The notes below the pieces were generated by a model. The model searched no databases. It saw only the letters and a program-made list of their open reading frames with translations, and was not told where the DNA came from. The position numbers were made by a program, and so were the translations under genes. Positions 22,463 to 58,054 of a stretch of DNA of 64,000 bases are shown in pieces (the stretch's first letter is position 1; each line of letters begins with the position of its first letter). This DNA comes from Odoribacter sp. UBA944 (GTDB lineage Bacteria; Bacteroidota; Bacteroidia; Bacteroidales; Marinifilaceae): assembly GCA_002293375.1 (NCBI GenBank), contig DBDA01000021.1, positions 26,305-90,304 on the forward strand, read 5' to 3'.

Positions 22463-22516
22463 TATGTGGACGTTTTTTGAATAGCAGAGGTGGGACGTTT
22501 TAACTTGGTGGGGTGT

Positions 22517-27610: not shown

Positions 27611-27625
27611 TTAAGCGTTTTGGCC

Positions 27626-35824: not shown

Positions 35825-35868
35825 CGGGAGGCATGAGTCAGTGAGTTATAATTTAAAATCAGCATGTG

Positions 35869-38800
35869 ATGGGAACCATTCGACAGTATTTGTTGTTTTT
35901 GTTGCTTTTTGTTCCTTTTTGGGCAGATGGCAATAATGTTCGTGTGGTGGGTGTTGTTCGAGCCCCTGCGGATTTGCTTTCCGGCGGTGTAGCGACGATC
36001 CAGCTTACTTTGGAATGGGAGAATTCGTGGCGCGATGATTATAATCACGATGCGATCTATCTTTCTCTTCGCTACAAGGTATTGAGTGAATCGACGGTAG
36101 AGTGGCGTCCTGTTTATTTGCAGGACGGCGGTCACAGTGCTACGAACGGTTATGTCTATACGCTTTCTCCGGGCAGTGTATCCGGGCGTAACGCGGGTAT
36201 TTTCATTTATGCGGGGAGCGCCCGAACGGGAACCGCCCGAACCGCCGTTTCTTTGAAGTGGGATTATGGTACGACGACCGATCTGGAGGCGTTTCAGTTC
36301 GCTTCCTCCGATGTCGTGATCGCCTGTACGGGGATCGAGATGGTCTATATTCCCCGTGGCGCCTATTCTTTGGGCGATTATGCGAATACGCAGGACTCTT
36401 CTCAGTGGAATTTCCGCCAACGTGATTTTTACATTCCGGATTCTCTGAATTTGGTCAGTACGCAGTATGTGATCATGTCTCCGGAGTCTGTGGCGAGCAA
36501 TCCTCCCCATCTTGCGGCCAACCGTATCAACGATATCTCCGGTGTCGGCAGTGACGGGAGTATTACGAATGCCTGGATCGCCAACTCTACGGAGGCGACC
36601 CTTTTGTGGACGATCGATTTTGGCCGGCTGATCGGTCCCTCCGGCGACACGACAGAACTTCCTCCCGCCTCCTCTATTCGTCGGGTGGAGTACATCTCTT
36701 TGGAATCCCTTCCCGGTTACGCTCCTGCTGAATGGAGCTTTTGGGGTAATCGGGACAATCCCCTCACGGGCAGTTCCCCCTGGGAGGAGCTTTATCGCGG
36801 AACTTCTTCGGATTGGAATACGAGCCTTGAGCGTGTCTATCCCGGTCAGAAGCTGGTCCGTCTTCCGGCTCCCCGTAACTTTCGGGCGTACCGTATCATC
36901 GTCAATCGGGATCAAATGCCTGCGGGGCGCTCTCCTGTCCTGAAGACGGTCGCGATGGCTGACACTGCGCTCAGCCGGATTTTTGACCATACTTTTGTTG
37001 TAGATACAGTGGTTACCCGCATCGGTGGCGTTTACGGCCTTTTTTCCAATGACGGCGAGGTTAGCTGGAATACTTCCAGCACCCTTCCTTCGACCTATCC
37101 GAACGGTTACAACGCTTTCTATGTTATGAAGTACGAAATGTCCCAGGATCAGTATCGTGGTTTTTTGGGTATGCTTACCCCTTCGCAACAGCAACAGCGT
37201 ACTCTTGGCGCCTCTCTCGACGCCCTGGATCCTTTGGATAACCGGTATGTTTTCGGCAGCGACCCTACGCAGCCCAATTTCCGCAACGGTATCGTTGTGT
37301 CTTCCCGCAGTGATCAGGGCGATACCGTGGCTTTTGCCTGTGATCTTAATCGTGAGAACGGTGTTGCCGCGGATGGTGACGGCCAGGCTCTCGCTTGCAA
37401 TTACCTCACCCCGTTAGACATGCTTTCTTACGCAGCTTGGGTGGGTCTTCGTCCTTTGAGCGAATTGGAATACGAACGGATCTCCCGTGCGCCTTATCCT
37501 TACGTTCCTTCTGTGCGCGAGTGCGCCTGGGGAGGTGTTGACGCCATTCCTCCTTCGGGGTTGATGGACGGCGGTAAGATCAACGAACGCTTTTCGACGG
37601 GTAACATCAATTTTAACAAACGTCTTCCGGGCCCTTCCCGGGTGGGGATCTTTGCTTTGGAGGGTAATAGCCAATCGGCTTCCGGATCAAGTTTCTGGGG
37701 TGTGCATGATCTCAGCGGTAACCTGAGTGAACTGTATTACAACGTTAGTTCCACAGGGCGTACCTTCAATGCCACACGTCATGGCAACAGCGTTCACGAG
37801 TCCCTCAGTACGCTTGATGTTTGGGGGTGGGACACAACCTCCTCCTCTTTCGGTCTTCGGGGAGGTAACTTCCTGAGTACGATGGATATTGAGTTGGCAG
37901 TATCCGACCGCCGGAATGCTGTTCGGCACATCCGCAAGAACGACTTCCGGGATTCTACGGTGAGTTTCCGTCTTGGACGCAGTGTTCCGGAAGGCCCCAA
38001 ACTTTCGAGTATTCTTACGCTTGAGAATGGTCGTACAACCTCTTCCGGCAGCGTATCCGACACGGTATGTGACGGTTCCGATTACCACATCGTCGGTAAC
38101 AGCCCTCCCGGCACTTATGCGCTTTATTTCCTTTGGTACCGCAGCGAGAATTTGGGTAAGACCTGGGATTTGGTACGGGGTGAAAACGGCAGCGACCTTT
38201 TCTTGGAGGGGTTGACGAACCGCGGTATGCGGGCAGGTGTTTTGCATGAATACTGGTTTAAGCGTAAGGCTATTCGCGACAACAGCGATGGGGTGAGTTC
38301 TGTCGTAAAGATCGTTGTCGCAAATCCGTCTTATACCGTGAGCCGTCTTCGGGATACGATCGACGGTTACGGGAAGGGTGCGGGTATAACGGTAATAACG
38401 CGTTACCCGACTCAGTTTGAGTGGCGTTATTTGGCTACCGGGGCTGTTCTTCCGTCGACGAACAGCAGCACGCAGAGTTATTACCTTCCGGATCGGGCTC
38501 ACCTTTCCGATGGAACGGGTAAGCCCATGCACGGGAAGCGTACGGTGATGGTTACGATGCGGATCGCAGATGCTTGTGAGCGCAGTGAGATTATCGAGGT
38601 GGATGTGATCAATACGATGGACAAGGATATCATGAAGGTGAAGGATTATGGCGGTTACCGCGGTTGGGGCGAGGGTACGTATGCCCCGAGTTGTGAGGGT
38701 TACCGGCGGCCAACGGGTGGTTATGAGTACCGGGGGGATATCGGCAGCGGGATCTACCGGATCGATCCGGACGGAAGGCACGGTCCTTTACGACCGTTCG

Positions 38801-39246
38801 ACATTGAGTGTGACATGACTACAGACGGCGGAGGATGGTCGATTCTTCGTACGAATACGCCGAGAACACGACGTAGGGGATATGAAGGAGGCGGTCATGT
38901 GATTTTCTCGCATCTGCCTTACTCTGCAGTCGGGGTTGTCACAACGGAAGCACAGATTGTCGGTTTACGAGCGGTTTCGACATCTGGTTACCAATATGTA
39001 AAAAAAGAGTGTTTACACTGTGCAATGAGTTCCAGTTTGTGGTATACATACGGTTCTGGAGGTAGTATCTCTTATACGAATTGGCCGAATTATGCGAATT
39101 GCAGTCCCAATGACCAAGTTTGGCGGGAAGCATCCGGGAATATAACGAATGTAAACTATATCCCGGTCAGACAATTTACAGGGGATGATACGGGTGACAG
39201 TGTCGAAGATGCATATTATACTTTTGGAGACGTGTATTTCCGGTGA
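35869..39246 (+). CDS. GldJ-fold scaffold paralogue A, fibrinogen-like C-terminal head
   Basis: 1125-1126 aa (GTG at 35866 or ATG at 35869) with an SPI-type signal peptide. N-module 'NNVRVVGVVRA...LEWENSWRDDYNHDAIYLSLRYKV'. The FGE-sulfatase fold opens with 'GIEMVYIPRGAYSLGD' and resumes at 'FYVMKYEMSQDQY' ... 'LRPLSELEYERISR' ... 'FWGVHDLSGNLSELY' ... 'VSFRLGR'. The nested insert is 'NAWIAN...LWTIDFG...VEYISLES...EWSFWGN...FRAYRIIV'. The head carries 'SGIYRIDPDG...PFDIECDMTTDGGGWSILR'. Confidence 0.8.
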   Translation: MGTIRQYLLFLLLFVPFWADGNNVRVVGVVRAPADLLSGGVATIQLTLEWENSWRDDYNHDAIYLSLRYKVLSESTVEWRPVYLQDGGHSATNGYVYTLSPGSVSGRNAGIFIYAGSARTGTARTAVSLKWDYGTTTDLEAFQFASSDVVIACTGIEMVYIPRGAYSLGDYANTQDSSQWNFRQRDFYIPDSLNLVSTQYVIMSPESVASNPPHLAANRINDISGVGSDGSITNAWIANSTEATLLWTIDFGRLIGPSGDTTELPPASSIRRVEYISLESLPGYAPAEWSFWGNRDNPLTGSSPWEELYRGTSSDWNTSLERVYPGQKLVRLPAPRNFRAYRIIVNRDQMPAGRSPVLKTVAMADTALSRIFDHTFVVDTVVTRIGGVYGLFSNDGEVSWNTSSTLPSTYPNGYNAFYVMKYEMSQDQYRGFLGMLTPSQQQQRTLGASLDALDPLDNRYVFGSDPTQPNFRNGIVVSSRSDQGDTVAFACDLNRENGVAADGDGQALACNYLTPLDMLSYAAWVGLRPLSELEYERISRAPYPYVPSVRECAWGGVDAIPPSGLMDGGKINERFSTGNINFNKRLPGPSRVGIFALEGNSQSASGSSFWGVHDLSGNLSELYYNVSSTGRTFNATRHGNSVHESLSTLDVWGWDTTSSSFGLRGGNFLSTMDIELAVSDRRNAVRHIRKNDFRDSTVSFRLGRSVPEGPKLSSILTLENGRTTSSGSVSDTVCDGSDYHIVGNSPPGTYALYFLWYRSENLGKTWDLVRGENGSDLFLEGLTNRGMRAGVLHEYWFKRKAIRDNSDGVSSVVKIVVANPSYTVSRLRDTIDGYGKGAGITVITRYPTQFEWRYLATGAVLPSTNSSTQSYYLPDRAHLSDGTGKPMHGKRTVMVTMRIADACERSEIIEVDVINTMDKDIMKVKDYGGYRGWGEGTYAPSCEGYRRPTGGYEYRGDIGSGIYRIDPDGRHGPLRPFDIECDMTTDGGGWSILRTNTPRTRRRGYEGGGHVIFSHLPYSAVGVVTTEAQIVGLRAVSTSGYQYVKKECLHCAMSSSLWYTYGSGGSISYTNWPNYANCSPNDQVWREASGNITNVNYIPVRQFTGDDTGDSVEDAYYTFGDVYFR

Positions 39247-39310
39247 TCGTACCTGTACGGATGATTTGGTCGCCGTGATATAAAGGAATGTTGGACAGTC
39301 CCGTAAAGAT

Positions 39311-42300
39311 ATGAACCGTTTTTTATTAGTTGTTTTGTTATCTGTTTCGGGAAAGGTACTTTTTGGCGACAATTTGCATTTCTCGGAGGTCCGTGTAGTT
39401 TCCGCGTCGGATACGGAGGCTGCGTTGGAGTTTGTTGTTTCCTGGAACAACTCCTGGCGAACGGCTTCCAATTTGGATGCGGTTTATCTGTTCGGGAAGT
39501 ACAAGTTCTCCGACTCTTCGGATTGGCACCATCTTTATTTTACAACAATTGCTGCCGACCACACTTCGGATGCCGCTACGGAACAGCTTCCTGTTAACGG
39601 TGGTCGTGGTCTTTTTGTTCGCCGTTCTGCCAGTGGCCGCGGTTCTGTACAGGCAACTCTTCAATTGAAGGTGAACCTGCTGGGGAATGTTTTGCTTCCG
39701 CTTACGGCCTCTGCCATCACTTCCGGCGATCTCCTTTTTTCGATTCAGGGGATTGAAATGGTGCTGATCCCTGCGGCTTCTTTTTACGCGGGCGATCAAG
39801 AGGCCTCCGGCGCTTTTTCCAATGCTGCCTTTGGAACGATCCTGCCGGAATATGATCTGATCCGTATAGATTCGGGTTATGTTTACTCTTCCAACGGCTC
39901 TGAGAGTATGAATGCTTCTCGTGTTGCCAACCGCCACAAACAGGGAGTCTACGACGCCTCCGCCCGTTTAGATTGGTGTGGGACGGCCATTCCGGCTATG
40001 TGGCAGGTGGATTTTAAGACGGCTAAAAAGATCCTTTATTTTGGTGTTTCCGGTGTTTCGGGTTTGAGTTGGGGCGGTTTTCCTCCGGCACCTGCGGGGG
40101 ATTGGTTTCTGGAGGGTTCCAATGATAACTCCGTTTGGATGGAGTTGTGGCGAGGTGATCCAACGTATTGGGGGCAGTCGGCGGTATCTTATCCGGTTCA
40201 GGCGATTCGAGTGAGTACCCCGGGCAGTTACCGGTATTACCGGATCCGCGTTACAGACAACCAGTGTTCTGCTTTGTGGAATAACATCCGCATCAATAAT
40301 GTGGGGATGACGGAGAACGATCTTTCGAAAATCTCCGGCGATGCTTTCCCTGTCCGGATCGCGAATGAAAATACCATTCTTCCCACATACTACCCGTCCG
40401 GTTTTCACGGTTTTTATGCGATGAAATACGAGTTGAGCCAAGAACAGTATGTCAATTTTCTGAATATGCTTCCGCGTTCGGCACAATACGAGCGTACGAT
40501 GGGCGGTTTGCTGGACGGTTTGGAAGAAGGAGAGTATATTTTCGGCGACCGGCGGGATGCACCCTCTTTCCGCAACGGGATCATTTTGAAACAGAAATAT
40601 CCGAATACCGGATTGCCGTATGTTTTTGCCCATGACCTTACCGGGACGGATTTAGATAATTCCGGGACGGACGGTCAGACGGTGGCCTGCAATTACCTTT
40701 CTCCGTCCGATATGTTGGCTTATGCGGAGTGGAGCGGGCTGCGGCCTTTGAGTGAATTGGAGTACGAAAAGATGTGCCGGGGAGCTTTTCCGGAGGTGCC
40801 GAAGGGCGGATCCTTTGCTTGGGAGTGGAGTGAAGTAGAACCGTTAACGGATGTGGTCCGTTTGGGTGAACCGGAAGAGGCGCTTTTACCCGGTAGCACG
40901 GCAAATGCTAATCTTGACGGCGGATCCAACACCGTCGGCGCTCCTGTTCGTGTGGGGCTTTTTACCCGTCCGGGGGAGCGAAAACAGGCGGGGCTTTCTT
41001 ATTGGGGCGTTTCTGACCTGACGGGCAATTTGAGCGAGATATACTGCAATACCGGCGTGTATGGACGGCAGCAGAATCGTGCGGTACACGGCGGCGGGCG
41101 ATTGGATGCAGACGGCAGACACGTTGTTCCCGGTACCGATTGGCCCCGTGAAAAAGATGCATACGGTGTTCGCGGAAGCGACTATGCGACTCCGGTAAGC
41201 GAGGCCTCTGCTTTTGAGCGCCGCCGTGCCGAAGGTTATTTTACAGGTATGGCCGAACGCTTGCCCATAACCGGTGTCCGTTTGGGTTTTTCGACAGAAC
41301 CGGTTCGTATGGTTGCGCACTTAACGTTGGAGAATGGTTTGCGTTCTTCTTCCGCTTTGGTATACGATACGGTTTGCGCTTCGCTTGCCTACTGCATAAA
41401 GGGAGAGAGGATCGGTGCTCCGGAGGCTTCTGTCAAGTACCTTTGGTATGAGAGCACGGACGACGGCGTTTCCTGGCAATTATTGACGGAAGCAGGGTGT
41501 GATCTCATCCTCCGGAACCTGACGGATCGTGTTCCGGAGAATACAGTTCGCTGTTTCCGGTACAAACGGATCGGTGTGGCGTTTGAAGAGATGTCTGAAA
41601 CGGGAACGGTTTGTTTGGTTGTGGCGCATGGTTATACTGTTAATCGTTTTTCCGACACCATTCGCCCTTGCATGCTTTCTAACGAATTTCAAATTACGAC
41701 GCCCCTGCTCTCTACATTTGAATGGCGGTGCGTGGAGAGTGGAAAACGATTGGCTTCTTCTACGTCCCTTGTTTCTTCGTACGCGATTCAGATGGACGAT
41801 TTGAAAACCGATCCGACGGAATTTCCCAGCGGTAATTATAGTGTTCATGTTAACATCCTCATGGCCGATAAGTGTGTCAGCGACCTTTCTTTGCGGATTG
41901 ATGTTATTCCTGAGACTGTTTCTCCTTTTAAAAGTTCGGCTGATGTATCCTATGTGTATGGAACCAATACATTGGAACTGAATGATAATTGGGGTGGTCC
42001 GGATCGGCAGCAATGGAGTATTGTGGGCGGGAATTATGGAGATCTGTCTGTGAGTGCAGTTGGTGTTTTAAGCGGGATTGCTACTACTTTTCTGCGGGTG
42101 GAAGTAGAAGCTGTTTGCCGGGATTTTCCGGATCGGGTATACCGGAAAAGATGGTTAGAGACGCTCCGAAGCCTTTCTTATACGGGAGGTGTACAGCAGA
42201 TGGCGCTTCCCGGCGGCACTTTCCAACTGGAGTGTTGGGGGGCGCAAGGAGGAACTATGGAATCCGGCTGGACCGGCATAGGCGGATACGGGGGATATAC

Positions 42301-42931
42301 TAAGGGAAAATTGACGTTGGAAGCATGGCGGATGTTTTATGTGTATGTAGGCGGATCGGGACAGGGCTACAATTCAGGGCGCTCCACGCATGCGGGTGGT
42401 TGGAACGGTGGAGCTGCCTGTTATGGCGGCGCTTCCGGCGGGGGTGGCGCTACGGATATTCGAGTGACGGGCGGGGCGTGGAATGATGTTGCCTCGCTTC
42501 GCAGCCGGATCATGGTGGCTGGTGGCGGGGGCGGTTCCAATGACAATCAAAACGGTGGAGCGGGTGGTGGTTTAACCGGCGGTATCGGCGCCTGTTCCAG
42601 CGGATCCGCTGCTTCCGGTGGCACTCAGACCAGCGGTGGAACCGGGTGGGTAAACGGATCGTTTGGAACCGGCGGTGGTTCTCCCAACAATTACAGCGAT
42701 GGCGGGGCTGGCGGCGGTGGGTATTACGGCGGCGGAAAATCCAGCGGGAGCTCTTGTGCAGGAGCAGGCGGTTCCTCTTTTGTCAGCAATTATGCAGGGT
42801 GTAATGCGGTAAATGCTTCCGGAGTACACACCGGACAATCCGGGCATTTCAGCGGGTTGCTCTTTTCCGAAACGGGTATAACGGCCGGGCAGCGAACCGG
42901 CAACGGAATGATGAGAATAACATATCAGTAA
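39311..42931 (+). CDS. GldJ-fold scaffold paralogue B, glycine-rich C-terminal head
   Basis: 1206 aa with a signal peptide. N-module 'DNLHFSEVRVVSASD...VSWNNSWRTASNLDAVYLFGKYKF'. Split FGE fold ('GIEMVLIPAASFYAGD' ... 'FYAMKYELSQEQY' ... 'GLRPLSELEYEKM' ... 'YWGVSDLTGNLSEIY' ... 'GVRLGFS') with the insert 'WQVDFKTAKKILYFGVSGV...WFLEGSNDNSVW...YRYYRIRV'. The C-terminus is 'CWGAQGG...GGYGGYTKG...VYVGGSGQGY...GGGGATDIRV...RIMVAGGGGGS...'. Confidence 0.8.
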   Translation: MNRFLLVVLLSVSGKVLFGDNLHFSEVRVVSASDTEAALEFVVSWNNSWRTASNLDAVYLFGKYKFSDSSDWHHLYFTTIAADHTSDAATEQLPVNGGRGLFVRRSASGRGSVQATLQLKVNLLGNVLLPLTASAITSGDLLFSIQGIEMVLIPAASFYAGDQEASGAFSNAAFGTILPEYDLIRIDSGYVYSSNGSESMNASRVANRHKQGVYDASARLDWCGTAIPAMWQVDFKTAKKILYFGVSGVSGLSWGGFPPAPAGDWFLEGSNDNSVWMELWRGDPTYWGQSAVSYPVQAIRVSTPGSYRYYRIRVTDNQCSALWNNIRINNVGMTENDLSKISGDAFPVRIANENTILPTYYPSGFHGFYAMKYELSQEQYVNFLNMLPRSAQYERTMGGLLDGLEEGEYIFGDRRDAPSFRNGIILKQKYPNTGLPYVFAHDLTGTDLDNSGTDGQTVACNYLSPSDMLAYAEWSGLRPLSELEYEKMCRGAFPEVPKGGSFAWEWSEVEPLTDVVRLGEPEEALLPGSTANANLDGGSNTVGAPVRVGLFTRPGERKQAGLSYWGVSDLTGNLSEIYCNTGVYGRQQNRAVHGGGRLDADGRHVVPGTDWPREKDAYGVRGSDYATPVSEASAFERRRAEGYFTGMAERLPITGVRLGFSTEPVRMVAHLTLENGLRSSSALVYDTVCASLAYCIKGERIGAPEASVKYLWYESTDDGVSWQLLTEAGCDLILRNLTDRVPENTVRCFRYKRIGVAFEEMSETGTVCLVVAHGYTVNRFSDTIRPCMLSNEFQITTPLLSTFEWRCVESGKRLASSTSLVSSYAIQMDDLKTDPTEFPSGNYSVHVNILMADKCVSDLSLRIDVIPETVSPFKSSADVSYVYGTNTLELNDNWGGPDRQQWSIVGGNYGDLSVSAVGVLSGIATTFLRVEVEAVCRDFPDRVYRKRWLETLRSLSYTGGVQQMALPGGTFQLECWGAQGGTMESGWTGIGGYGGYTKGKLTLEAWRMFYVYVGGSGQGYNSGRSTHAGGWNGGAACYGGASGGGGATDIRVTGGAWNDVASLRSRIMVAGGGGGSNDNQNGGAGGGLTGGIGACSSGSAASGGTQTSGGTGWVNGSFGTGGGSPNNYSDGGAGGGGYYGGGKSSGSSCAGAGGSSFVSNYAGCNAVNASGVHTGQSGHFSGLLFSETGITAGQRTGNGMMRITYQ

Positions 42932-42937
42932 TGTGTA

Positions 42938-45900
42938 ATGAGTTGGATTAAACGTTTGTTTGTTTGGGGTGTCAGTCTCTGTGTATTTCCATTATATGGC
43001 GACAATTTGCATTTCTCGGAGGTCCGTGTAGTTTCCGTATCGGATACGGGAGCTGCTTTGGAGGTTACTGTTTTCTGGAGCAATTCCTGGTGCCACTCTT
43101 ACAATCACGATGCGGTATATCTGTTTGGCAAGTACAGCGAGGATGAGATTTCGGGTTGGCGTCATGCTTTCTTTTCTTCGGATGTTTCCTCTTATAGTGT
43201 TTCTGAAGGTTATAGTGTAACGCCGACCTCTGATGGTCGTGGTTTGTTGCTTCGTCGTACCTCTTTTGGGAGCGGAACTTCTGAGGCGACGCTCCGTTTG
43301 ACCTGGTCTCTTTCGGGCAATGAGCTTTCTGTGGTGTCTGCCTCTTCCGTTCTTTCGGGTGCTGTCCGTTTTTCTCTTCAGGGCCTTGAAGTGGTTTATC
43401 TTCCTCCCGGCCCCTTTTATGCGGGCGACGGGGTTTCGGAATCCTCCTTTTCGACCTCTTTTTTCGGCGGTATACCTTCGGAGAGCGATCTTATCGGCAC
43501 GGATGCGAGCTATGTTTACAGCGCGAACGGTAGCGAATCTTCGGGCGTGCATGCCGGCCGTGCTGCGGACCGGTACAACCAGGGAGTTTACGATGCCTCT
43601 TCCCGTCACGACTGGTGCGGTACGGTTCTTCCGGCAACCTGGCAGGTAGATTTCGGCCGCGCGAAGAAGATCCTGTATTTTGGTGTTTCGGGGGTCTATC
43701 CCGACAACATCCCTCCGGCTCCTTCGGGTACGTGGTACTTCGAGGGTTCTACGGATGGTTCTTCCTGGTCCCCTCTTTGGAGCGGCGGTCCTGAGTATTG
43801 GGGTCAGTCCCGCATCTCTTATCCTGTTCAGCAGGCGCTCCGTGTTGTTTCCCCGGGTTTGTACCGTTATTACCGTATCCGTGTGGATGGGAGCCAGCAG
43901 GCCGGTTACTGGAACACGATCCGGATCTCCAATGTGGCGATGACGGAGGATGATCTGTCTCTTCGTCCGACGGACCAAGCTGTTTTGATGGACGGTTTCC
44001 ACCCGGAACTTCCCTCTTCTTATCCATTGGGTACGGAAGGCTTCTATGCGATGAAATATGAGTTGACCCAGGAGCAGTATGTGACCTTTTTGAACCAGCT
44101 TCCCCGTTCAGCTCAATATGCGCGCACTATCGGCGGTGTGTTGGACCGTTTGGAAGAGGGTGATTATGTTTTCGGTGGCCTTCCGGGTTCTTCTTCCCAC
44201 CGCAACGGTATCGTTGTTCACGATCGGCGTTTGAACAGCGGTCTTCCGATTGTTTTTGCGTGTGACCTGGATCGTTCCAATCCCGCTAACGGTTCCTCCG
44301 ACGGTCAGTCGGTTGCCTGCAACTACCTGAGCCCCGCGGATCTGCTTTCCTATGCAGAGTGGACCGGTTTGCGCCCTATGAGCGAATTGGAATACGAGAA
44401 GATGGGCCGCTCCTTTTCCCCTGTTTCCGAGATTGGTGCTTTCCCTGCCTGGGGGAGCGCGCTTTACGTTCCGGGTACGGATCTCTCCTCTGCGGGAACT
44501 TCGCTTGAAACGGCTGTTCCTTCCGATGCCAATGTGAATGCGGAGGGTCATCTTCCCGGCCCTCTTCGTTCTGGTTCTTTTACTCGGGGTGGCAGTCGTT
44601 TTGAGTCCGGTATCTCTTTTTGGGGTTTGTCGGATCTGAGCGGTAACCTGAGTGAGATTTACTGCAATACGAACTCCTGGGGCATTCAGTTGTCGCGTTT
44701 TGAGCATGGCGGGGGTGAGGTTACTTCAGATGGGAAGCATCAGATTTCCGGCCTGTATTGGCCTTCCCATCCTCTTGCTTACGGCTGGCGTGGCGGGGAT
44801 TACGGTTCCGATCCTGTCGCTCTTTCTCTTTCCTATCGGGGTCGGTCTTCCTCCGGTGTTTATGACGATCTGTCGCTTCGTTTTCCTGTGGCGGGTATTC
44901 GTTTGGGTCTTTCATGGTCTGATCCTGTTGGTCGTTCGGAGTTGTTGCTTGGTAACGGTCTTTTGACGGGTGTTTCAGAGGTATGTGATACGGTTTGCGA
45001 CGGTACGGCGTATGAACTTCGGGGTGTTGATGTTCCGGGTTCCGATCCTGCCGTTTACATTTGGTACGGCAGTGACGATGGGGGTATTAGTTGGCAGAAC
45101 CTGCATGTGAACAGTGCTGTTTTGCGTCTTCCGGATCTTGTTTCCCGTGTATCTCCGGGTAGAGTGGTTTCTTTCCGGTACCGGCGTGTTGTTTATACGT
45201 CTTCGGGTCTTTTGGAGAGTGGGGTTGCTGTTTTGGTTGTCGGCCGGGGGTATACGACGGATCGTTTGTCGGATACGATTCGTCCCTGTATGGTTTCGGA
45301 GGGTTTTCATATTACGACGCCGCTGCCGGCAACGTTTGAGTGGAGATATATAGAGAGCGGCAAACAGGCAGCAGCAGTTTCTACCCCTTTTACGTCTGCC
45401 TGTTTTGTTCAGGTGGCGGATTTAAAGGAACGGCCTGAGGAGTTTCCGAGTGGCAACTACAGACTTGATTTGAAAATAAACACAGCGGGAAGATGTATTG
45501 ATAACCTTTCTTTGCAAGTGCATGTTACGTCGAATACGGTTTCTCCGTTTACGAAATCGGAAGAGCCGTATGTTTATGAATCCAATACGTGTATCCTGAA
45601 TGAAAAATGGGGTGGGCCGGACCGGCAACATTGGAGTATTGTCGGCGGCGGATATGGAAATCTGTCTATTGATGAAGCTACGGGAGTGTTAAGCGGTATC
45701 ACCACTACTTTTCTGCACGATGTTGTGGTAGAGGCTGTTTGCCGGGATTATCCGGACAGGACCTATCGGAAAACAGTAACAGAAACGGCCCGGATCATCT
45801 CTTATGTGGCGGCGGCGCAGCCCCTCGTTCTTCCTGCAGGAACATACAATATAGCGTGTTGGGGAGCGGATGGGGGGATGGGTAACGGAGGTTCGAATCC

Positions 45901-46618: not shown

Positions 46619-47013
46619 CATGTAATGGCCTTTTTTTGAAACACCGGACTGATCGATCATCTCCGTGCAGTATGGATTTATATAACTATAAAATAGAATA
46701 GATGCTTTGTGAATAACAATATGTTTTATTATTATTTGAACGTATGTAATCATAAGATGGGATGATAAGTCGGATTTTTATAGAAAAATACGCAAAAATA
46801 AGGTGCGAATCGTTAAATAAATCCACCAAACAACAGTCCATTCGCATAACAATTCAAAAAACCAACCACCATTCGCCCCCAAATAACTAAGAAACAATTA
46901 TTTAGGCAGCGTAAAAATGTAGTTTTTTCAAAAATATACATACCTGACATTCAGCTTGTTGCAATTTTTTTAGAAAAATATATTCGGTGATTCTTGAAAT
47001 TCAATATTTTTTT

Positions 47014-47045
47014 TTTGGGATTGCGATTAATTCTATTTAATTTTG
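47014..47045 (+). promoter_or_regulatory. candidate Bacteroidota sigma-A promoter (-33 TTTG / -7 TAATTTTG) for the D-E-F-giant unit
   Basis: TTTG at 47014-47017 and TAATTTTG (TAnnTTTG) at 47038-47045 are separated by 20 bp. They sit at the 3' end of a 472-nt strongly AT-rich gap, about 46 nt upstream of the ATG at 47091. Confidence 0.45.
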
Positions 47046-47090
47046 GTGGTAAGATTGAGGAGTATGTGTATCGATAGTGGAAAGAGACAA

Positions 47091-50630: not shown

Positions 50631-50665
50631 TAAAATAGGAATTAGTGAAAAAATAGATAGATAGT

Positions 50666-53600
50666 ATGAAGAGGTTTGCGATACTGTGCCTGTTTGCGGC
50701 GTTTGCGGGGAATATCTGTCGGGCAAACAACATCCGGGTAGACGGAGATGTCCGGGTGACGGGCAATGATGTCAGCGGAAACATAGCCACGGTCAACATT
50801 AAATTGCAGTGGGACAATTCGTGGAGGGATGCTTTTAATTATGATGCTGCGTATGTTTTTGTGAAATACAAAGTGGACGGAGAGGGGGAACTTTGGCATC
50901 ATGCCACGCTGATGAGCGACGGACATACGGTAACCCCCGGATATGAAACTCTGCTTTCCAACACGACCGGAGAGACAGATAAAAACCAGGGAATTTTTGT
51001 GTACCGCTCCGGAAAAGGGGTCGGTTCTTCCGTGGTGGAATTGAAATTGAGGTGGAATATCACGGGAAATCCGAACAAGGTATTGAATACCGACCTGTTT
51101 ATTTCCAACCGGGTGTTTATCACGGCTATGGGTATAGAGATGGTCTATATTCCGCGGGGAGGATTCCGGGCCGGCGATACCAGGTCTGTGAAAAAATTTG
51201 AGTACAAAGATGTAACCTTTCCGGCTAAATACGATCTGTTGACAACGGATCTTGTCAGGGAGTATTACTCTTCCAAATCCAGAGAATTGGTATCCGATCC
51301 CAATCCGCCCGCTTTTGCCATCAATGGCATCAACGATGTTAATCCGGAAAAGAGCAATGCCTGGGTAGGGCGTACGGATACTCCCGAAGGTGTAGACTAT
51401 GATGATTTCTGGCAGGTGTCTTTTACCCAGCCGGTGGTGTTGAGGAGTATTGCGATCGAGAGTATTGCGGGCGGTGTGCCGGCCGAGTGGAAACTGGAGG
51501 CCTCAACGACGAGTGGGTGGAGGGCTATCTATCCGGTCAATTATCAGGATGACATTTACGCTCTCGGGAGTGAGTGGGCGACAGGATCGCACCGGACCTA
51601 TCCCTGTACGCGAACCCTGCGTATACCGGACGATCCGGAAAATGAACAGGGATACTCTACTTACCGTATTACTATTAAGGGGATTCCTGCCGGGGGAACT
51701 GTCATTAAAAATGTTTCCATGGGGGTTGCCAATGTATTGGATTCTGTGGATAACTCTGTTGTGATAGACGGCCCGCAGAGCCGGATGCACAACCGGTACG
51801 GCCTGTATGCCGAAGACGGCGATACGTGGTCGGGTTTGACGGATGTGAATTATCCGAACGGATACGGGGCCTTCTTTGCCATGAAATACGAGATCACTCA
51901 GGAACAGTATGTTACTTTTCTGAATAAACTGACTGCGGCTCAACAGCGGAACCGTACCATCGGAGCGGTAAAATTGGAATCGTTGCTGGAGGGACAATAC
52001 GTGTTTGGGGACGATAAGAATAACCCGACTGCCCGTAACGGCATCAAATTAGCCTCCATTGGTGTGAACGACGCACCTTATGTATTTGCCAATGATTTAA
52101 ATCCCCTGAACGAATATGCGCAGGACGGCGACGGACAAACCATTGCCTGTAATTTCCTGAACGGAGGGGATATGCTGGCTTATGCCGACTGGGTGGGTCT
52201 GCGTCCGCTGACGGAGCTGGAATATGAAAAAATGGCCCGCCGCCCCTTCCCCGAACACGCTATCCGGGGAGAGTATGCCTGGAACCAGGCTGTCGATGCA
52301 ACAAAGGCTACCGGCTTTTTCGGGACAACAGTCGGTAAGAAGACCGAGCGTCCGGCATCCGGGAACGTAAACATGGAGAACGGCCAGGAGGGACCGTTGC
52401 GGGTAGGCTCTTTTGCTGCCTCTTCCGGCGGTCAGGTTGCTGCGGGCGCCAGTTTCTGGGGATTGATGGAGTTGAGCGGAAACCTGGGTGAACTGTACTA
52501 CAACGCCAACACGGTGGGCCGGGGATTTCGCGGTATGCAGAATATTCACCACGGAAACGGCCAGTTGGCTGCGGACGGGAATACGGATGTATTGACGGAT
52601 TACTGGCCCTGGGCGGAACAGGCATTTTCCCTGCGGGGCGGCAGTTATCAGGATGTGAAGGAACGGGTGCGGATTTCCGACCGGGAACGGAACCTGAATG
52701 TGTTCGGCAGCATCAGCGAAGTGACTGGGATGAAGAGCCCCACCATGACTTTTCGCTTGGGGCGGACAGCTCCGGTGCTTACACTAATATCCGAGTTGGT
52801 GTTGGAAAACGGGCAGAGTACGGCCATGAATGCGATCGACTCCGTCTGTTCGGGTGTGGATTACATTATCAAGGGAACGATACCCAAGGAGATCACCGGT
52901 TCGTTCCGGATCGCCTGGTTTATGAGCAGTGATAAGGGAACAACTTGGGATTTGATGGAGGGAGAAGAGCAACCCTCCCTGAATATCAAGAATTTGCGTA
53001 ACATCAACCTGACGCAGGATCTCTTTATGAATTTCCGCTTCCGGAGACGCATTTTCAGCGATCGGTACGATGTGGTTACCACGAACGATGTGGAGATCAA
53101 TGTGATCAACAACTCTTTGATCGTAAGCAACAACCGGGATACCTTGGATGTGTACGACCGCTCTAAAGGGTTCCGGGTGGAGACCCCGCAGGCGGCTACA
53201 TTTGCCTGGACCTGGTTGCGGTCAGGCGTAAATAATAACCGGCCGATCACTCCGGAGTACCCTGCGATCGTTGCGGGCAAAGTGCAACGCCATTTCTTTG
53301 CCTATACGGACTTTGAGGACGGGGCTATGTTTCTGGGAACAAATAAGATCCTGTTGGAGGTAACTGTTATGAAAAAGTGTCCGTTGCAGGATACACTCTA
53401 TGTTTTTGTGGAAGAGTCTCCCTCGCCGCAGGATAACGGAGAGACTTTTGTCTGCGGGAATATATTACAGTTCGAAGAGGAAAGGTACCGCACCATTGAG
53501 ATCGGCGGCCGTTGTTGGTTTGCAGACAACCTGAGGCGCACACCGTCTACCGGCAGTTACAAGTGTTATGACGAATCGTTGGAAAACTGCAAGAAATACG

Positions 53601-54331
53601 GGTATCTGTATAACTATCAAGCTGTGGCCGGGCAGGTTTACTCGGATTTAACGGGGAGTGCAAAATTTCAGGGAATTTGCCCGCCGGGGTGGCATGTACC
53701 CAGTAATCCGGAGTGGTTAGACCTTCTGACAGCTATTGGTCAGAACCCCAATACGCGAAACAATGCATTGAAATTGCAAAGCCCGTTAAATGACTGGGGG
53801 TGGAACAGTTCTACTGCTGCTGCCATGACCGACGAAGCCAAGATCGGAACCAACGAAAGCGGTTTTAGCGCTTTGCCGGCCGGAGGCCGTTTTTTTGCAA
53901 GCAACACCGGTTATAATCCGAGGATGTGGACAGCTCGCAACGGTTTTGGTGATTTGCATTCGAGGGGGTGGTGGTGGACCTCTTCCGTAGCACTTTCCAC
54001 TTGGGGTGGAAATAGAACCAATGACAGGAATGTTGCGATGATACCCTATCATGTTACATTAAATTTTCATGAAGAGACAAAGCTGGGTGGGGGAGCGATA
54101 AGCACCGCGCCTTCGAATATGACTTATTTGGGCAACACATTGTACACGAATACCCTGGCAGGGGGGAGCACTTACGGATATTTGACCAATAGTGTATTGA
54201 ATGCATACTCCTATGCCTATTTGTATACCGGTGAAAACCAAGCAGGTTGGAATTCGCTGTATAATACGGCTGCGGGAAATAACATTTGGCAACAGTTTTA
54301 TTTTTCGGTTCGTTGCATTAGAAATTATTGA
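50666..54331 (+). CDS. GldJ-fold scaffold paralogue E, FISUMP C-terminal head
   Basis: 1221 aa. 'NNIRVDGDVRV...LQWDNSWRDAFNYDAAYVFVKYKV', 'GIEMVYIPRGGFRAGD', 'WQVSFTQPVVLRSIAIES...EWKLEAS', 'FFAMKYEITQEQY', 'GLRPLTELEYEKM' and 'MTFRLGR'. Head: 'YRTIEIGGRCWFADNL...CKKYGYLYNY...CPPGWHVPSNPEWLDL...FYFSVRCIRNY'. Confidence 0.8.
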   Translation: MKRFAILCLFAAFAGNICRANNIRVDGDVRVTGNDVSGNIATVNIKLQWDNSWRDAFNYDAAYVFVKYKVDGEGELWHHATLMSDGHTVTPGYETLLSNTTGETDKNQGIFVYRSGKGVGSSVVELKLRWNITGNPNKVLNTDLFISNRVFITAMGIEMVYIPRGGFRAGDTRSVKKFEYKDVTFPAKYDLLTTDLVREYYSSKSRELVSDPNPPAFAINGINDVNPEKSNAWVGRTDTPEGVDYDDFWQVSFTQPVVLRSIAIESIAGGVPAEWKLEASTTSGWRAIYPVNYQDDIYALGSEWATGSHRTYPCTRTLRIPDDPENEQGYSTYRITIKGIPAGGTVIKNVSMGVANVLDSVDNSVVIDGPQSRMHNRYGLYAEDGDTWSGLTDVNYPNGYGAFFAMKYEITQEQYVTFLNKLTAAQQRNRTIGAVKLESLLEGQYVFGDDKNNPTARNGIKLASIGVNDAPYVFANDLNPLNEYAQDGDGQTIACNFLNGGDMLAYADWVGLRPLTELEYEKMARRPFPEHAIRGEYAWNQAVDATKATGFFGTTVGKKTERPASGNVNMENGQEGPLRVGSFAASSGGQVAAGASFWGLMELSGNLGELYYNANTVGRGFRGMQNIHHGNGQLAADGNTDVLTDYWPWAEQAFSLRGGSYQDVKERVRISDRERNLNVFGSISEVTGMKSPTMTFRLGRTAPVLTLISELVLENGQSTAMNAIDSVCSGVDYIIKGTIPKEITGSFRIAWFMSSDKGTTWDLMEGEEQPSLNIKNLRNINLTQDLFMNFRFRRRIFSDRYDVVTTNDVEINVINNSLIVSNNRDTLDVYDRSKGFRVETPQAATFAWTWLRSGVNNNRPITPEYPAIVAGKVQRHFFAYTDFEDGAMFLGTNKILLEVTVMKKCPLQDTLYVFVEESPSPQDNGETFVCGNILQFEEERYRTIEIGGRCWFADNLRRTPSTGSYKCYDESLENCKKYGYLYNYQAVAGQVYSDLTGSAKFQGICPPGWHVPSNPEWLDLLTAIGQNPNTRNNALKLQSPLNDWGWNSSTAAAMTDEAKIGTNESGFSALPAGGRFFASNTGYNPRMWTARNGFGDLHSRGWWWTSSVALSTWGGNRTNDRNVAMIPYHVTLNFHEETKLGGGAISTAPSNMTYLGNTLYTNTLAGGSTYGYLTNSVLNAYSYAYLYTGENQAGWNSLYNTAAGNNIWQQFYFSVRCIRNY

Positions 54332-54361
54332 TGTAAAATAACAAGAGAAGATATCACAGAG

Positions 54362-57300
54362 ATGGCTGTAATAAGATATTTGGTGACGGTAATCGCGGCG
54401 GTGTTGTTGACGGCGCCGGGGGTTTGGGGAAACAACATCCGCATCGAAGGGGATGTGCGTGTGGCGCGGGAGGATGTGGTCGAAAACATTGCCACGGTAC
54501 GAATTACCGTGAAGTGGGAGAACTCTTGGCGGGACGCATTTAATTACGATGCGGCCTACATTTTTCTGAAATACAAGGTGGACGGAACCGGCGAGGTGTG
54601 GCACCACCTGCCCCTGATGAATTCGGGACACTCCGTCAAACCTGCCGGTGATTTCGGGTATGTCCTTGCCAATTCCAACGGCAGTGGCGGGACGCAGCAT
54701 CGAAATGAGGGGATCTTTATATACCGTTCCGGAATAGGACGGGGGGATGCGACTGCCCAGTTGGAGTTGAAGTGGAACATTACCGTCAATCCGGACAGGG
54801 TGTTGAACGAAGACCTGTTTACCAACAACTCGGTGTTTGTGTCTGCGATGGCCATTGAAATGGTCTACATTCCCCGCGGAGGTTTCCGGGCGGGCGATAC
54901 GCAGTCGGACAAGAAGTTTGAATATGGGGACGTAACGTTGCCGGCATCCTACGATATTTTGGGCACTTCTGCTGTAAAAAGGTGTTTTTCTTCCCGGGAA
55001 ACGGCGACGAATCCCCCCTCTTTTGCCATAAACCGGATGAATGATGTGACCGAAGATGAGACCAATGCCTGGGTGGGCCGCGTGGATGCACCCGTTGAAG
55101 AGGTAGATTATTTCGATTATTGGCAGGTGGAGTTTAACAATCCGGTGCGGATCCGTAATTTTGCCATTGAGAGTATTGCGGGCAGGGTTCCGGATGAGTG
55201 GCAATTGCAAGGATTGTCCAGTGGCGGAACGTGGCAGACCCTCTATCCCGGCAGCAATGAAAATGTTTACGCTCCCGGGACGGATTGGGCTGTAGGTTCC
55301 CACCAGACCTATCCTTGTACCCGCACATTGGCGATACCGAACTACGAAAGCAACTACAGTACATACCGCATCCGGATCAAGTCGATGCCGGCCGGTGTCT
55401 CTCCGGTGATTAAGAACATCGCCATGACGACAGAGAACTATTTGTCCTTTGTGGACAACTCTGTGGTTATTTCGGAGCCGACGACCAAGCTGGATGCCCG
55501 GAACGGTCTCTTTGCCCGTGACGAGGATACCTGGTCGGGTGTGACGGACGCCAATTATCCCAACGGATATGCAGCTTTTTTTACCATGAAGTACGAGGTG
55601 AGCCAGGAACAGTACGTGGCATTTCTGAACAAGTTGACAGCGGCCCAGCAACGCAGCCGTACCATTGGCGGTGATTTGGAACATTTAGCGGAAGGAGACT
55701 ATGTTTTCGGCAGCAGCCGGACAGAACCCAATTACCGCAACGGGATCAAAATATCCCGGGTGGGGGCGAGCGGCGCTCCGTACGTTTTTGCCAACGACCT
55801 GAACAGTGCAGACGGGGCCTATTCTCAGGAGAGCGATGGGCAGACCATTGCCTGTAACTTCCTGAATGCCGGTGATATGTTGGCGTATGCCGACTGGGCC
55901 GGATTGCGTCCCCTGACGGAATTGGAGTACGAAAAGATGGCTCGTCGCCCCTTCCTGGATACGGTGGTGCGGGGCGAGTATCCCTGGAACCGGAATACGG
56001 ATTATCTCTCTGCTCCGGCCATAGTGTCCGACGGGACTGTCGGGACAAAAGACGAAAGCGTGACGGCCGGTAACATCAATGCCGCCAGATTGGAAAACGG
56101 GCAGGCTCAACTGCCGGGACCGGTCCGGGTAGGCGCTTTTGCCAAGTCGGCGGAACAGAGTTCTCAGACGGCTGCCGGCGCCGGCTTTTGGGGTGTGATG
56201 GAGTTGGGGGGAAATCTGAGTGAGATTTACTACAATGCCAATACGGAGGGGCGTGCCTTCCGGGGAATTCGGGACATCTACCACGGAAACGGGAAATTGG
56301 CCTCTAATGGACAGGCCGATGTCTCTTCCGCACTTTGGGTTTTGTCGGAGAACGCCTTTGCTGTCCGGGGTGGGAACTTTGGGGATTTGGCCGCCAGAAC
56401 CCGTACGTCCGACCGCTTTTGGAACAAGGGGGTGTTTGCCAACATGAACCAGGTAAACGGCTTGCGCGACAGTACGCTTACTTTCCGGTTGGGGTACACG
56501 GCGCCCGTACAGACCCTTGCCTCTCCGTTGCAGTTGGAAAACGGGCAGACAACGGATCTGGCCCTTGCTGTCGATTCGATCTGTTCCGGTTCCGATTACC
56601 TGATCCGGGGGACCCTCCCGTCGGCCATCACCGGTATTTACCGCATAGCCTGGTTTATGAGCAGCGATAAGGGGGCAACCTGGGTACTGATGAAGAACGA
56701 GGAGTCGCCCTCCCTGCATTTGGAAAATCTGCGGAACATCAACTCCAAAGAGGACAGTTTTATCGAATACCGCTACCGCAGGCGGATATATAGCAACGGA
56801 CCTGATGATACCACAAACGATGTGCGGTTGTTGGTTATCAATACGTCGCTGAATATTGACCGGTTGGTGGATACGGTGGATGTGTATGACTATTCGCAGG
56901 GGATCCGGGTGCAAGCTCCACAGGCGGCCACCTTCTCCTGGACATGGATCCGTGAAAGCAGCGGCAACAAGGCCATCACTCCGCAGTATCCTGCCATCAA
57001 AGCGAACAAAATACAGCGCCATTATTTTAAGTATGCCGATTTTTTTGACGGTTCTCAGTATACGGGCGATCAGAAAATACTTCTCAAAGTGACTGTTTTG
57101 GGCCAGTGTTCCAGTTATGATACGGTTCGGCTCTATGTCCGCGAGCGGCCGGTGGAGACCAATGCGGTCAACAACGATGCGGCTAAGACAGCCAATGCCG
57201 ATTTCCGGTGCGGAGATATTTTGGTGGACAACGAAGAGAACGTTACCGTGTTCAAGAAGTACCGGACGGTTGACATCGGTGGGATGTGCTGGTTTGCAGA

Positions 57301-58054
57301 CAACCTGAACCGTACTGCTACAAACGATATCGGTGCTTCGTACTGCTACGGCGGGGACACAGGCGATTGCAACGCGTTGTACGGCCGGCTCTACAACTAC
57401 AGAGCTGCTACTCAAAATGCTGCTGCAGCCCTGTTAACAGGAACCATTAAAGGCATCTGCCCTACGGGGTGGCACCTGCCTTCCAATGCGGAGTGGTTGG
57501 ATTTGCTGCGTGCGATCGGGGTAAATCAAAATGCGGCCGGAAATGCGGTAGCCCTCCAAAGCCCGCTGAATTCCTGGACAAACACCACCGATGAGAACCG
57601 GATCGGTACCAACAGTTCCCGTTTCAGTGCGCAGCCCTCCGGAGGACAATTTTGGTACTATACGGGTAGTGTCTCTGCGAGCTACGGACCATACGAATGG
57701 GAATACCGCACCGGTTATGCCGATCAGGGAAATCGAGCATGGTGGTGGACCTCGACAGTCGGATCACTTAATTGGCATCCCCATGATACAAGAAGTTATG
57801 CCGCGATGCCTTACCACGTTGTATTGAATAATCAGAGCGGAACACCGGTGGCGACAGAACTCTATGCCCGAACGATTTATACAAGTACTTCAGCGACCGC
57901 AGCAGCAGGGAGTTATTCGGTATTGACGGGACGGCATCATTATTATCTTGCCAGGAATTATACTAATGGAGCTTGGAATTTAACTTATAATATGGAGGCT
58001 ACGGATGCTATGTGGAGCAACTTTTATTTTGCAGTCCGTTGCGTTAAAAATTAA
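54362..58054 (+). CDS. GldJ-fold scaffold paralogue F, FISUMP C-terminal head
   Basis: 1230 aa and, by eye, the closest relative of E. 'NNIRIEGDVRV...VKWENSWRDAFNYDAAYIFLKYKV', 'AIEMVYIPRGGFRAGD', 'WQVEFNNPVRIRNFAIES', 'FFTMKYEVSQEQY', 'GLRPLTELEYEKM' and 'LTFRLGY'. Head: 'YRTVDIGGMCWFADNL...YGRLYNY...CPTGWHLPSNAEWLDL...FYFAVRCVKN'. Confidence 0.8.
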   Translation: MAVIRYLVTVIAAVLLTAPGVWGNNIRIEGDVRVAREDVVENIATVRITVKWENSWRDAFNYDAAYIFLKYKVDGTGEVWHHLPLMNSGHSVKPAGDFGYVLANSNGSGGTQHRNEGIFIYRSGIGRGDATAQLELKWNITVNPDRVLNEDLFTNNSVFVSAMAIEMVYIPRGGFRAGDTQSDKKFEYGDVTLPASYDILGTSAVKRCFSSRETATNPPSFAINRMNDVTEDETNAWVGRVDAPVEEVDYFDYWQVEFNNPVRIRNFAIESIAGRVPDEWQLQGLSSGGTWQTLYPGSNENVYAPGTDWAVGSHQTYPCTRTLAIPNYESNYSTYRIRIKSMPAGVSPVIKNIAMTTENYLSFVDNSVVISEPTTKLDARNGLFARDEDTWSGVTDANYPNGYAAFFTMKYEVSQEQYVAFLNKLTAAQQRSRTIGGDLEHLAEGDYVFGSSRTEPNYRNGIKISRVGASGAPYVFANDLNSADGAYSQESDGQTIACNFLNAGDMLAYADWAGLRPLTELEYEKMARRPFLDTVVRGEYPWNRNTDYLSAPAIVSDGTVGTKDESVTAGNINAARLENGQAQLPGPVRVGAFAKSAEQSSQTAAGAGFWGVMELGGNLSEIYYNANTEGRAFRGIRDIYHGNGKLASNGQADVSSALWVLSENAFAVRGGNFGDLAARTRTSDRFWNKGVFANMNQVNGLRDSTLTFRLGYTAPVQTLASPLQLENGQTTDLALAVDSICSGSDYLIRGTLPSAITGIYRIAWFMSSDKGATWVLMKNEESPSLHLENLRNINSKEDSFIEYRYRRRIYSNGPDDTTNDVRLLVINTSLNIDRLVDTVDVYDYSQGIRVQAPQAATFSWTWIRESSGNKAITPQYPAIKANKIQRHYFKYADFFDGSQYTGDQKILLKVTVLGQCSSYDTVRLYVRERPVETNAVNNDAAKTANADFRCGDILVDNEENVTVFKKYRTVDIGGMCWFADNLNRTATNDIGASYCYGGDTGDCNALYGRLYNYRAATQNAAAALLTGTIKGICPTGWHLPSNAEWLDLLRAIGVNQNAAGNAVALQSPLNSWTNTTDENRIGTNSSRFSAQPSGGQFWYYTGSVSASYGPYEWEYRTGYADQGNRAWWWTSTVGSLNWHPHDTRSYAAMPYHVVLNNQSGTPVATELYARTIYTSTSATAAAGSYSVLTGRHHYYLARNYTNGAWNLTYNMEATDAMWSNFYFAVRCVKN

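Follow-up and report, generated by a model that had tools for sequence, protein, structure and literature searches.

The question raised by this locus is how six large secreted proteins that carry no recognisable sorting signal might reach, or be held at, the cell surface. They are encoded by genes A to F, a tandem array at positions 35866–58054 on the forward (+) strand of the 64,000-nt stretch of Odoribacter sp. UBA944 DNA analysed here (hereafter the window), and they share one domain order: a signal peptidase I (SPI) signal peptide, a beta-sandwich N-module, an apparently non-catalytic fold of the formylglycine-generating enzyme (FGE) type that a discoidin-like insert divides in two, a pair of Ig-like domains, and a C-terminal head of one of three types. 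Searches with NCBIfam and Pfam gave no match in A–F at E ≤ 0.01 to the C-terminal sorting domains (CTDs) of type IX secretion systems (T9SS), either type A (TIGR04183) or type B (TIGR04131), with the giant encoded upstream (4e-16) and downstream partners (1e-7 to 1e-12) serving as positive controls. Nor is there a conserved lipobox Cys in the N-termini of 98 aligned family sequences, in which, read by eye from the sequence, the signal peptide ends in A or G and is followed by an invariant NN. These results agree with an earlier interpretation of this DNA made from its letters alone (the sequence-only reading), which had found neither a T9SS CTD nor a lipobox in the six proteins. A cryptic C-terminal signal common to A–F was also considered and rejected, given that the C-termini track the three head types and have nothing in common. 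A candidate answer to the export puzzle is suggested by the conserved pairing of genes for the core of these proteins with genes for T9SS cargo bearing a particular motif, and by rare proteins in which that core is fused to a CTD.

The nature of the scaffold was best seen through P0080, a 532-aa homologue that aligns with residues 9–170 and 390–682 of A and lacks the intervening ~220 residues, from which it follows that the scaffold consists of the N-module and an FGE fold with an interruption behind its first strands. The AlphaFold2 (AF2) model of this insert-less protein (pLDDT 90.3, pTM 0.90), which was made since a Foldseek search with full-length A returned mostly Ig-like and galactose oxidase matches with low TM-scores and said little about the core, matched FGE structures at 3e-9 with TM-scores of 0.53–0.59 (normalised to the target). 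The family profile matched human FGE (6.5e-11), SUMF2 (3.4e-7), other FGEs, CalU17 and EgtB, and PorK weakly (2e-3), and the Pfam scores of A–F for PF03781 (FGE-sulfatase) lie around the cut-off of 23.3 bits, at 20–24 bits. Profile and modelled structure together place A–F in the FGE superfamily, and with the short homologues that lack the insert they support the split FGE fold with a nested insert that the sequence-only reading had proposed. Single-sequence searches of the PDB with the scaffold, the FISUMP heads and the glycine-rich domain (GRD) heads returned nothing useful. The positions aligned to the catalytic pair Cys336 and Cys341 of human FGE are not Cys in the family profile, and neither a His triad of the EgtB/OvoA type nor a Cys pair is found among the invariant columns of 54 members, so the FGE-like fold is predicted to be non-catalytic.

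The N-module and FGE core define a family of 2,401 clusters at 50% identity (E ≤ 1e-30 in a profile search of 1.84 billion representatives), the members of which are typically ~500–560 aa long and carry generic names only, NCBI using "SUMF1/EgtB/PvdO family nonheme iron enzyme". Literature searches on FGE-sulfatase with T9SS and on FISUMP returned no description of this core family. Among species-representative genomes the core is found across Bacteroidota, Ignavibacteria and Kapabacteria, and only Odoribacter and Culturomica have the long form, Odoribacter sp. Z80 and O. lunatus DSM 112344 among them; proteins of the window itself turn up again in metagenomes from termite guts. With the scaffold of A as query, a search returned ~75 full-length relatives, every one with one of the three heads (and one with Lcl_C as well), followed by core-only proteins. 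Within the Odoribacteraceae the core has acquired a swappable head of lectin type as well as the discoidin-like insert and the two Ig-like spacers, whilst outside the Odoribacteraceae it is fused to FISUMP, Gly_rich_2, Lcl_C, DUF285, Laminin_G_3 or PKD_6, which makes modularity a property of the whole core family. Among 426 core proteins there are three that bear their own T9SS type A CTD. Core genes were also observed in metagenome-assembled genomes (MAGs) labelled Chloroflexi, Verrucomicrobiota, Planctomycetia, Pseudomonadota, Bdellovibrionota and Omnitrophota (loci L046, L047, L056, L061, L073, L078 and L081), which could be either real spread or mis-binning.

When T9SS CTDs in the fetched loci were mapped with purpose-built hidden Markov models (five of the five checked being confirmed by TIGR04183), 17 of 41 non-Odoribacter loci proved to have a CTD-bearing open reading frame (ORF) directly downstream of the core gene, and 2 of 38 to have one directly upstream. 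The downstream order is also that of an isolate, Flavobacteriaceae bacterium MAR_2010_105 (L085). The partner is of type B in two loci, L068 and L074, with a PorP gene coming next in L074. The partners are homologous beyond the CTD, having right behind the signal peptide the motif [FYW]xGGxxDG[FYWH] or a GGxGxG variant of it, often repeated 5–11 times at a spacing of 20–26 aa, in a region that no Pfam family covers. Several small partners are made of a signal peptide, 5–11 motif repeats and a CTD, and nothing more. Small partners that are little else than 5–11 YSGGxGDGF repeats, spaced at 20–26 aa, occur in L085 (11436–12068), L041 (4735–5388) and L079 (11428–12516), each with a type A CTD, and in L077 (11621–12820), which has 11 repeats and no recognised CTD.

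The motif is specific to this position. Of the 68 ORFs lying directly downstream, 12 have its strict form (33 motifs in 38,034 aa); none of the 61 lying directly upstream does, and of 2,575 other ORFs 2 do. When the comparison is confined to the CTD-bearing ORFs of these loci, the N-terminal variant is seen in 17 of 20 direct partners as against 1 of 30 others. The last of these figures led to rejection of the motif as a generic feature of T9SS cargo. In the reverse direction, a search with nothing but the motif region gave two further proteins, each of which has a core gene directly upstream (hhalign probabilities of 100% and 99.9%). The pairing of core gene and motif cargo is new, in that no account of it was found in the searchable literature. 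As a separate observation, tandem core genes seem to become more numerous the larger the partner is, from one before partners of 160–770 aa, to two or three before partners of at least 1,860–2,800 aa (L064, L056, L037 and L052), and to four to eight before giants (L011, L002 and the window).

In the window, the direct downstream position is held by an Ig-repeat giant (58092–64000, + strand; Ig_3 1.6e-57, with Ig_2 and Ig_7, "CHU_C associated") that starts 37 nt downstream of F and runs past the window end, so that the N-terminal 1969 of its 6611 aa are seen (the full length being taken from L001/L086). It carries the strict motif as FAGGTNDGF (aa 1230–1238; 61779–61805, +), FGGGADDGF (aa 1507–1515; 62610–62636, +) and FRGGDDDGF (aa 1797–1805; 63480–63506, +), with two more strict sites past the window end at aa 2078 and 2344 (L086) and degenerate copies near aa 678 and 952. 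This gives five strict sites in 3,321 aa with a period of ~280 aa, against a mean of 0.005 in 2,000 shuffles, and each site lies a few residues behind the same '..GC..D(S/T)..VFV' strand. The giants that directly follow the arrays in L007, L009, L011 and L042 have the motif as well, as does the one that lies ~4.5 kb downstream of the array in L018, whilst in its strict form it is absent from A–F, from the 2734-aa type-B giant upstream of the array, and from the PorP protein and four small proteins encoded in the same cluster.

These observations may be accounted for if A–F serve as accessory subunits to a giant adhesin that depends on the T9SS, docking on the motifs of the giant and being exported or anchored in trans, a reading that is favoured here at a little under an even chance. 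A–F are Sec/SPI-exported proteins and have no sorting signal of their own; the FGE-like core would act as a peptide- or protein-docking module, as the FGE fold does in PorK, and would recognise [FYW]xGGxxDG[FYWH] on the T9SS cargo encoded directly downstream; and the partner, which is the giant here and elsewhere may be a small adaptor of motif repeats and CTD, would supply the signal for secretion and anchoring. The outcome would be a long fibre assembled at the surface and bearing several kinds of binding head. The docking step in this scheme is drawn from genomic association plus analogy. A broader form of the same idea, namely that a widespread two-component "split cargo" mode of T9SS export joins a CTD-less FGE-like receptor to a CTD-bearing YxGGxxDGF partner, be it a minimal adaptor or a giant adhesin with periodic sites, that exports and anchors it in trans, with the Odoribacteraceae placing arrays of six to eight head-swapping paralogues on one fibre, is possible but rather unlikely.

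Several points weigh against docking and export in trans. The precomputed Pfam record of the 6611-aa giant contains Ig-type families only and no CHU_C, so that the giant is only a putative T9SS cargo (the 2695-aa giant of L003 does have CHU_C), and the giants upstream of the arrays in L042, L026 and L011 match no CTD model at their C-termini. Around half of the core loci have no CTD or motif partner by the models used, and no motif-bearing ORF lies directly downstream of the single-copy GRD-headed genes of O. lunatus. The motif could also serve the partner itself, as a structural or Ca-binding element, and be found with the core gene by mere co-occurrence. In the AF2 model of A, the head outside its recognised segment has pLDDT values of 37–73, making this a low-confidence head. 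Finally, we know of no precedent for co-translocation of a 130-kDa partner by the T9SS translocon.

The main rival to this explanation is that the core is a periplasmic chaperone or modifier acting on the YxGGxxDGF segments of nascent cargo, which would either be held in an export-competent state or be chemically modified as FGE modifies CxPxR, with the heads binding periplasmic or cell-wall glycans or other parts of the cargo. Proteins with an SPI signal, no CTD and no lipobox would be periplasmic by default, the gene pairing and the motif speak for this arrangement as much as for docking on the giant, and the FGE family consists of peptide-modifying enzymes, the NCBI name of the relatives being that of a nonheme iron enzyme. 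The loss of the catalytic Cys pair and the lack of a conserved His triad, however, argue against modification, and the three core proteins with a T9SS CTD of their own indicate an extracellular role for at least some members of the core family. Extracellular binding proteins are, moreover, where discoidin, Ig-like, fibrinogen-like, FISUMP and GRD modules are typically met, and a chaperone would have no need of six copies with swappable heads. A periplasmic role for A–F is therefore regarded as unlikely, and the reading in which they dock on the giant is retained.

The six genes themselves are clearly related. Gene A (35866–39246, +) encodes 1126 aa, or 1125 aa from the ATG at 35869, in which form the protein is identical to P0001, and is followed by B (39311–42931, +; 1206 aa), C (42938–46618, +; 1226 aa), D (47043–50630, +), E (50666–54331, +; 1221 aa) and F (54362–58054, +; 1230 aa). 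The start of D is ambiguous between TTG 47043, ATG 47064 and ATG 47091, with either ATG being likelier and the gene caller on L001 choosing the equivalent of 47064. Pairwise BLASTP gave a common scaffold of ~850–930 aa, with identities between groups of 30–38% over ~830–990 aligned residues (E 1e-82 to 1e-154), 50% between B and C, 54% between E and F, and 37–38% over the full length for D against E or F. These values bear out the description of A–F in the sequence-only reading as six tandem paralogues on one scaffold, and on the same grounds low-complexity similarity was rejected as the cause of their resemblance. DNA similarity is merely 60–85% and confined to conserved patches, which points to A–F being old tandem duplicates; recent gene conversion or duplication in assembly was rejected, near-identical stretches of DNA being absent. 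The intergenic gaps from A to F are 64, 6, 424, 35 and 30 nt. The only long gap of the array (46619–47042, 424 nt) separates C from D, and with it A-B-C from the FISUMP group D-E-F, and a consensus scan of this interval found weak matches only, with no excess of promoter or terminator signals.

Where the paralogues part company is in their C-terminal heads. The fibrinogen-like head of A (aa ~916–1126) is recognised by GGGWT_bact NF040941 (4e-12, 45.9 bits against a cut-off of 30) and falls right at the cut-off of 22 for PF00147 Fibrinogen_C (22.0 bits, over 40 aa only); just the ~40-aa YCDxxxxGGGW region, which is the N-terminal part of a fibrinogen-related domain (FReD), can be aligned to FIBCD1, tenascin and ficolin, where a full FReD has ~220 aa. 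The ALK/LTK-type glycine-rich heads of B (aa 963–1205) and C (aa 964–1222) match PF12810 ALK_LTK_GRD at 1.6e-40 (140 bits) and 1.6e-37 (130 bits) against a cut-off of 24.5, and span model positions 2–242 of 243. FISUMP heads are found in D (aa ~949–1194; TIGR02145 1.1e-36, 127 bits, and PF09603 1.7e-25), E (TIGR02145 6.9e-27, 95 bits) and F (1.4e-24, 88 bits), the TIGR02145 cut-off being 41.65. Compared profile against profile, the three head types gave probabilities of no more than 0.2%, whilst a split-FISUMP control gave 100%, and as far as sequence can tell the three heads are unrelated, as had been claimed.

Heads and scaffolds have not descended together. On a neighbour-joining tree of 832 scaffold columns (200 bootstraps), P0051, with a fibrinogen-like head, falls inside the FISUMP D/E/F clade (200/200), P0062 and P0070, fibrinogen-like by Pfam, cluster with B and C (200/200), and one GRD clade joins the FISUMP proteins (200/200), whilst monophyly of all GRD-headed or of all fibrinogen-like (FIB)-headed proteins was recovered in 0 of 200 bootstraps. 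Fibrinogen-like heads thus form three separate clades on the scaffold tree and GRD heads at least three, and this polyphyly is taken as evidence that heads have been exchanged repeatedly between scaffold lineages, a stronger result than the minimum of one exchange for which the sequence-only reading had argued. Its wider description of a modular display family, in which a GldJ-like stalk presents alternative heads, holds for the single scaffold with interchangeable, unrelated heads, given the tree and the fusions outside this group, and is not supported in the wording "GldJ-like stalk", for the reasons given below. The term "display" likewise claims more than the data bear out.

Such heads would also suit proteins that act alone, and A–F could be independent lectin-like proteins, soluble in the periplasm or released, with no more than an adhesion operon in common with the giants, in which case the association with the motif would reflect co-inheritance in operons with no contact. 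The head families have known or presumed ligand binding, at around half of the core loci no partner with a CTD or motif could be detected, and O. lunatus has many dispersed single copies, of which at least eight that lack the insert (N-module, FGE fold and GRD, ~930–1040 aa) were observed in DSM 112344 (L025–L034). Against this, the association is strongly directional and motif-specific, it holds across distant lineages and for both type A and type B cargo, the reverse test succeeded in two of two cases, and core-CTD fusions exist. Independent lectins are accordingly thought improbable, and docking on the giant remains the preferred explanation, under which the heads would be ligand-binding modules borne by the fibre.

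Along the scaffold of A, the signal peptide (aa 1–22) is followed by the N-module (aa ~23–150), the first FGE strand (aa ~150–175), the discoidin-like insert (aa ~175–395), the FGE body (aa ~396–705) and the two Ig-like domains (aa ~706–915), which in the AF2 model of A (pLDDT 86.2, pTM 0.78) are two beta-rich domains resembling Ig/FN3-type structures in Foldseek. Foldseek found no convincing structural neighbour of the N-module. The predicted mature N-terminus is the invariant Asn-Asn that opens the first beta strand (NNVRV.. directly behind ..A/G), and the N-module also holds an invariant Trp-rich motif, WENSWR..N.DA. As for the insert, it seems discoidin-like: its scores for Pfam F5_F8_type_C are 17–24 bits, under the cut-off of 28.2, with a weak match at aa 220–285 in C, and the insert profile matches the GH92 C-terminal domain (2.6e-8) and, weakly, factor VIII C domains (E 0.15–0.9).

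The array stands within a same-strand cluster, the first gene of which encodes a T9SS outer-membrane carrier of the PorP/SprF family (22490–23497, +; TIGR03519 1.6e-49, PF11751 7e-42). This gene lies 12 kb upstream of the array and heads the cluster, and is not adjacent to A–F as had been stated in the sequence-only reading. The C-terminal tail of the carrier has a single Cys (..NKADDCKNKWYFK), as compared with the CxC of F. johnsoniae SprF, a pair that forms disulfide bonds to GldK (PMC12635249). Next come four ORFs for small secreted or lipoprotein-like proteins (23506–24726, 24731–25654, 25673–26785 and 26789–27610, all +), the first with a weak DUF1565/LIC10774 match, and then the repeat protein of 2734 aa, in which residues 2650–2731 are a T9SS type B sorting domain (27620–35824, +; TIGR04131 4e-16, CHU_C 2.4e-19). 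The small proteins seem mutually related from phmmer cross-matches in L003, and two of the four have a lipobox-like Cys (..LLFAC and ..LFAGC). Their homologues in L003/L004 have a weak Lcl_C match and occupy the same place upstream of a type-B giant. This layout, with small Lcl_C-like proteins, a CHU_C giant, an array headed FIB-FIB-GRD-FISUMP and giant ORFs, is conserved in Odoribacter, Culturomica and other gut metagenomes, and one related array has at least 8 copies.

A genuine gldJ is also present in the window (2980–4491, −; TIGR03524 461 bits, cut-off 458), adjoining murF (1605–2894). GldJ is typical of gliding Bacteroidota, and an Odoribacter-like gut bacterium that has it may possess a track of the gliding type. 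A specific kinship of A–F with GldJ or GldK was nevertheless rejected: A–F give no match at E ≤ 0.01 to the GldJ, GldK and PorK models (TIGR03524, TIGR03530 and TIGR03525), the short core relatives score at most 26.8 bits against GldJ/GldK models with a cut-off of 350, hhalign of the family profile with the GldJ of the window aligned the first beta-strand motif only (4.6% probability), and the profile is nearer to true FGEs (6.5e-11) than to PorK (2e-3). With A–F not being lipoproteins either, their likeness to GldJ lies at the level of the FGE superfamily fold alone, and the "GldJ-like stalk" is given up. In GldK an invariant Cys at the surface, C343, makes disulfide bonds to the tails of PorG or SprF, and by analogy with SprF and GldK a disulfide tether between C511, the sole invariant Cys of the FGE domain, and the tail Cys of PorP was considered; it is unlikely, as this position falls on a core strand in the alignment with FGE, and 14 of 35 short members have M, V, L, I or A there, so that C511 is probably buried and not a linking thiol. 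That A–F are riders or components of a gliding track, joining a periplasmic FGE-fold track and coupling adhesin-PorP complexes to it, is consistent with the FGE fold common to PorK, GldK and GldJ (PMC12421860), with the bona fide gldJ, with the PorP/SprF gene and type-B cargo of the cluster, and with the reported movement on the track of SprC, which is encoded upstream of sprD-sprB-sprF (PMC12635249), but is very improbable in view of the lack of specific GldJ/GldK similarity or lipidation, the probable burial of C511, and the absence of any Flavobacterium protein from the top 120 core homologues.

Amongst known systems, FGE and SUMF2 (pFGE) are closest to the core, both by profile and by structure. 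The 'GN..E' segment of the core is conserved and aligns with the GNAWEW of FGE, which we take to be its Ca-site segment, and pFGE/SUMF2 likewise lacks the catalytic cysteines. A–F differ from FGE in having no Cu-binding Cys pair, in the fused N-terminal beta-sandwich and in being secretory proteins of bacteria with a link to T9SS cargo, and the ligand, CxPxR in FGE, would be YxGGxxDGF in A–F. The heads exceed the curated cut-offs of the single-domain families GGGWT, FISUMP TIGR02145 and PF12810, but in A–F they are terminal modules on a ~900-aa scaffold, exchanged between lineages.

The SprB-SprF paradigm resembles the cluster in the window, which has a PorP/SprF gene first and a giant with a type-B CTD, followed after A–F by a second, Ig-repeat giant; the model proposed for A–F differs from it in a third, CTD-less component, for which a peptide motif would be the means of recruitment. 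Similarity is also seen to SprC, encoded in the sprCDBF operon of F. johnsoniae, in that its gene lies upstream of those for a giant adhesin and a PorP-like carrier. With a length of <2.1 kb (PMC9870892), sprC is compatible with a core protein of ~500–600 aa, and its product moves with the gliding machinery (PMC12635249). Gene order and size may thus hint at kinship between SprC and the core, which is put forward as a lead only: a scan of the genome contigs with a published sprC-flanking primer found no match, and the domain make-up of SprC is not described in the literature searched.

At present, what defines a protein as T9SS cargo is a C-terminal sorting domain in cis. If the docking model is true, a conserved pair of receptor and motif that recruits signal-less proteins would widen the range of T9SS cargo, and would account for many unannotated "SUMF1/EgtB/PvdO family" genes of Bacteroidota, in ~2,400 clusters. 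The locus would then be a modular adhesin in which binding specificity evolves by head exchange, something that bears on attachment to host or particles by gut and termite-gut Odoribacteraceae. Both motif and pairing are open to direct testing with peptides and structure prediction.

The nearest functional parallel is PorK, in which the substrate groove of the FGE fold has been repurposed as a protein-docking hub, with an insertion domain, InsH, at R81–P230 (PMC12421860). PorK, GldK and GldJ are like A–F in having a fold of the FGE superfamily without the catalytic cysteines, in tolerating a large domain inserted near the N-terminal strands of that fold, and in being encoded by T9SS-associated genes. 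A–F are unlike them in the extra N-module, the Ig-like spacers and the heads, in the lack of a lipobox, and in having their genes beside cargo genes and not in gldKLMN-type operons, and A–F are not known to polymerise. Docking by A–F would, if true, be a third use of the repurposed FGE fold beside the PorK ring and the GldJ/K track, and the pairing found here is in this sense a further variant of the repurposed FGE-fold theme in T9SS.

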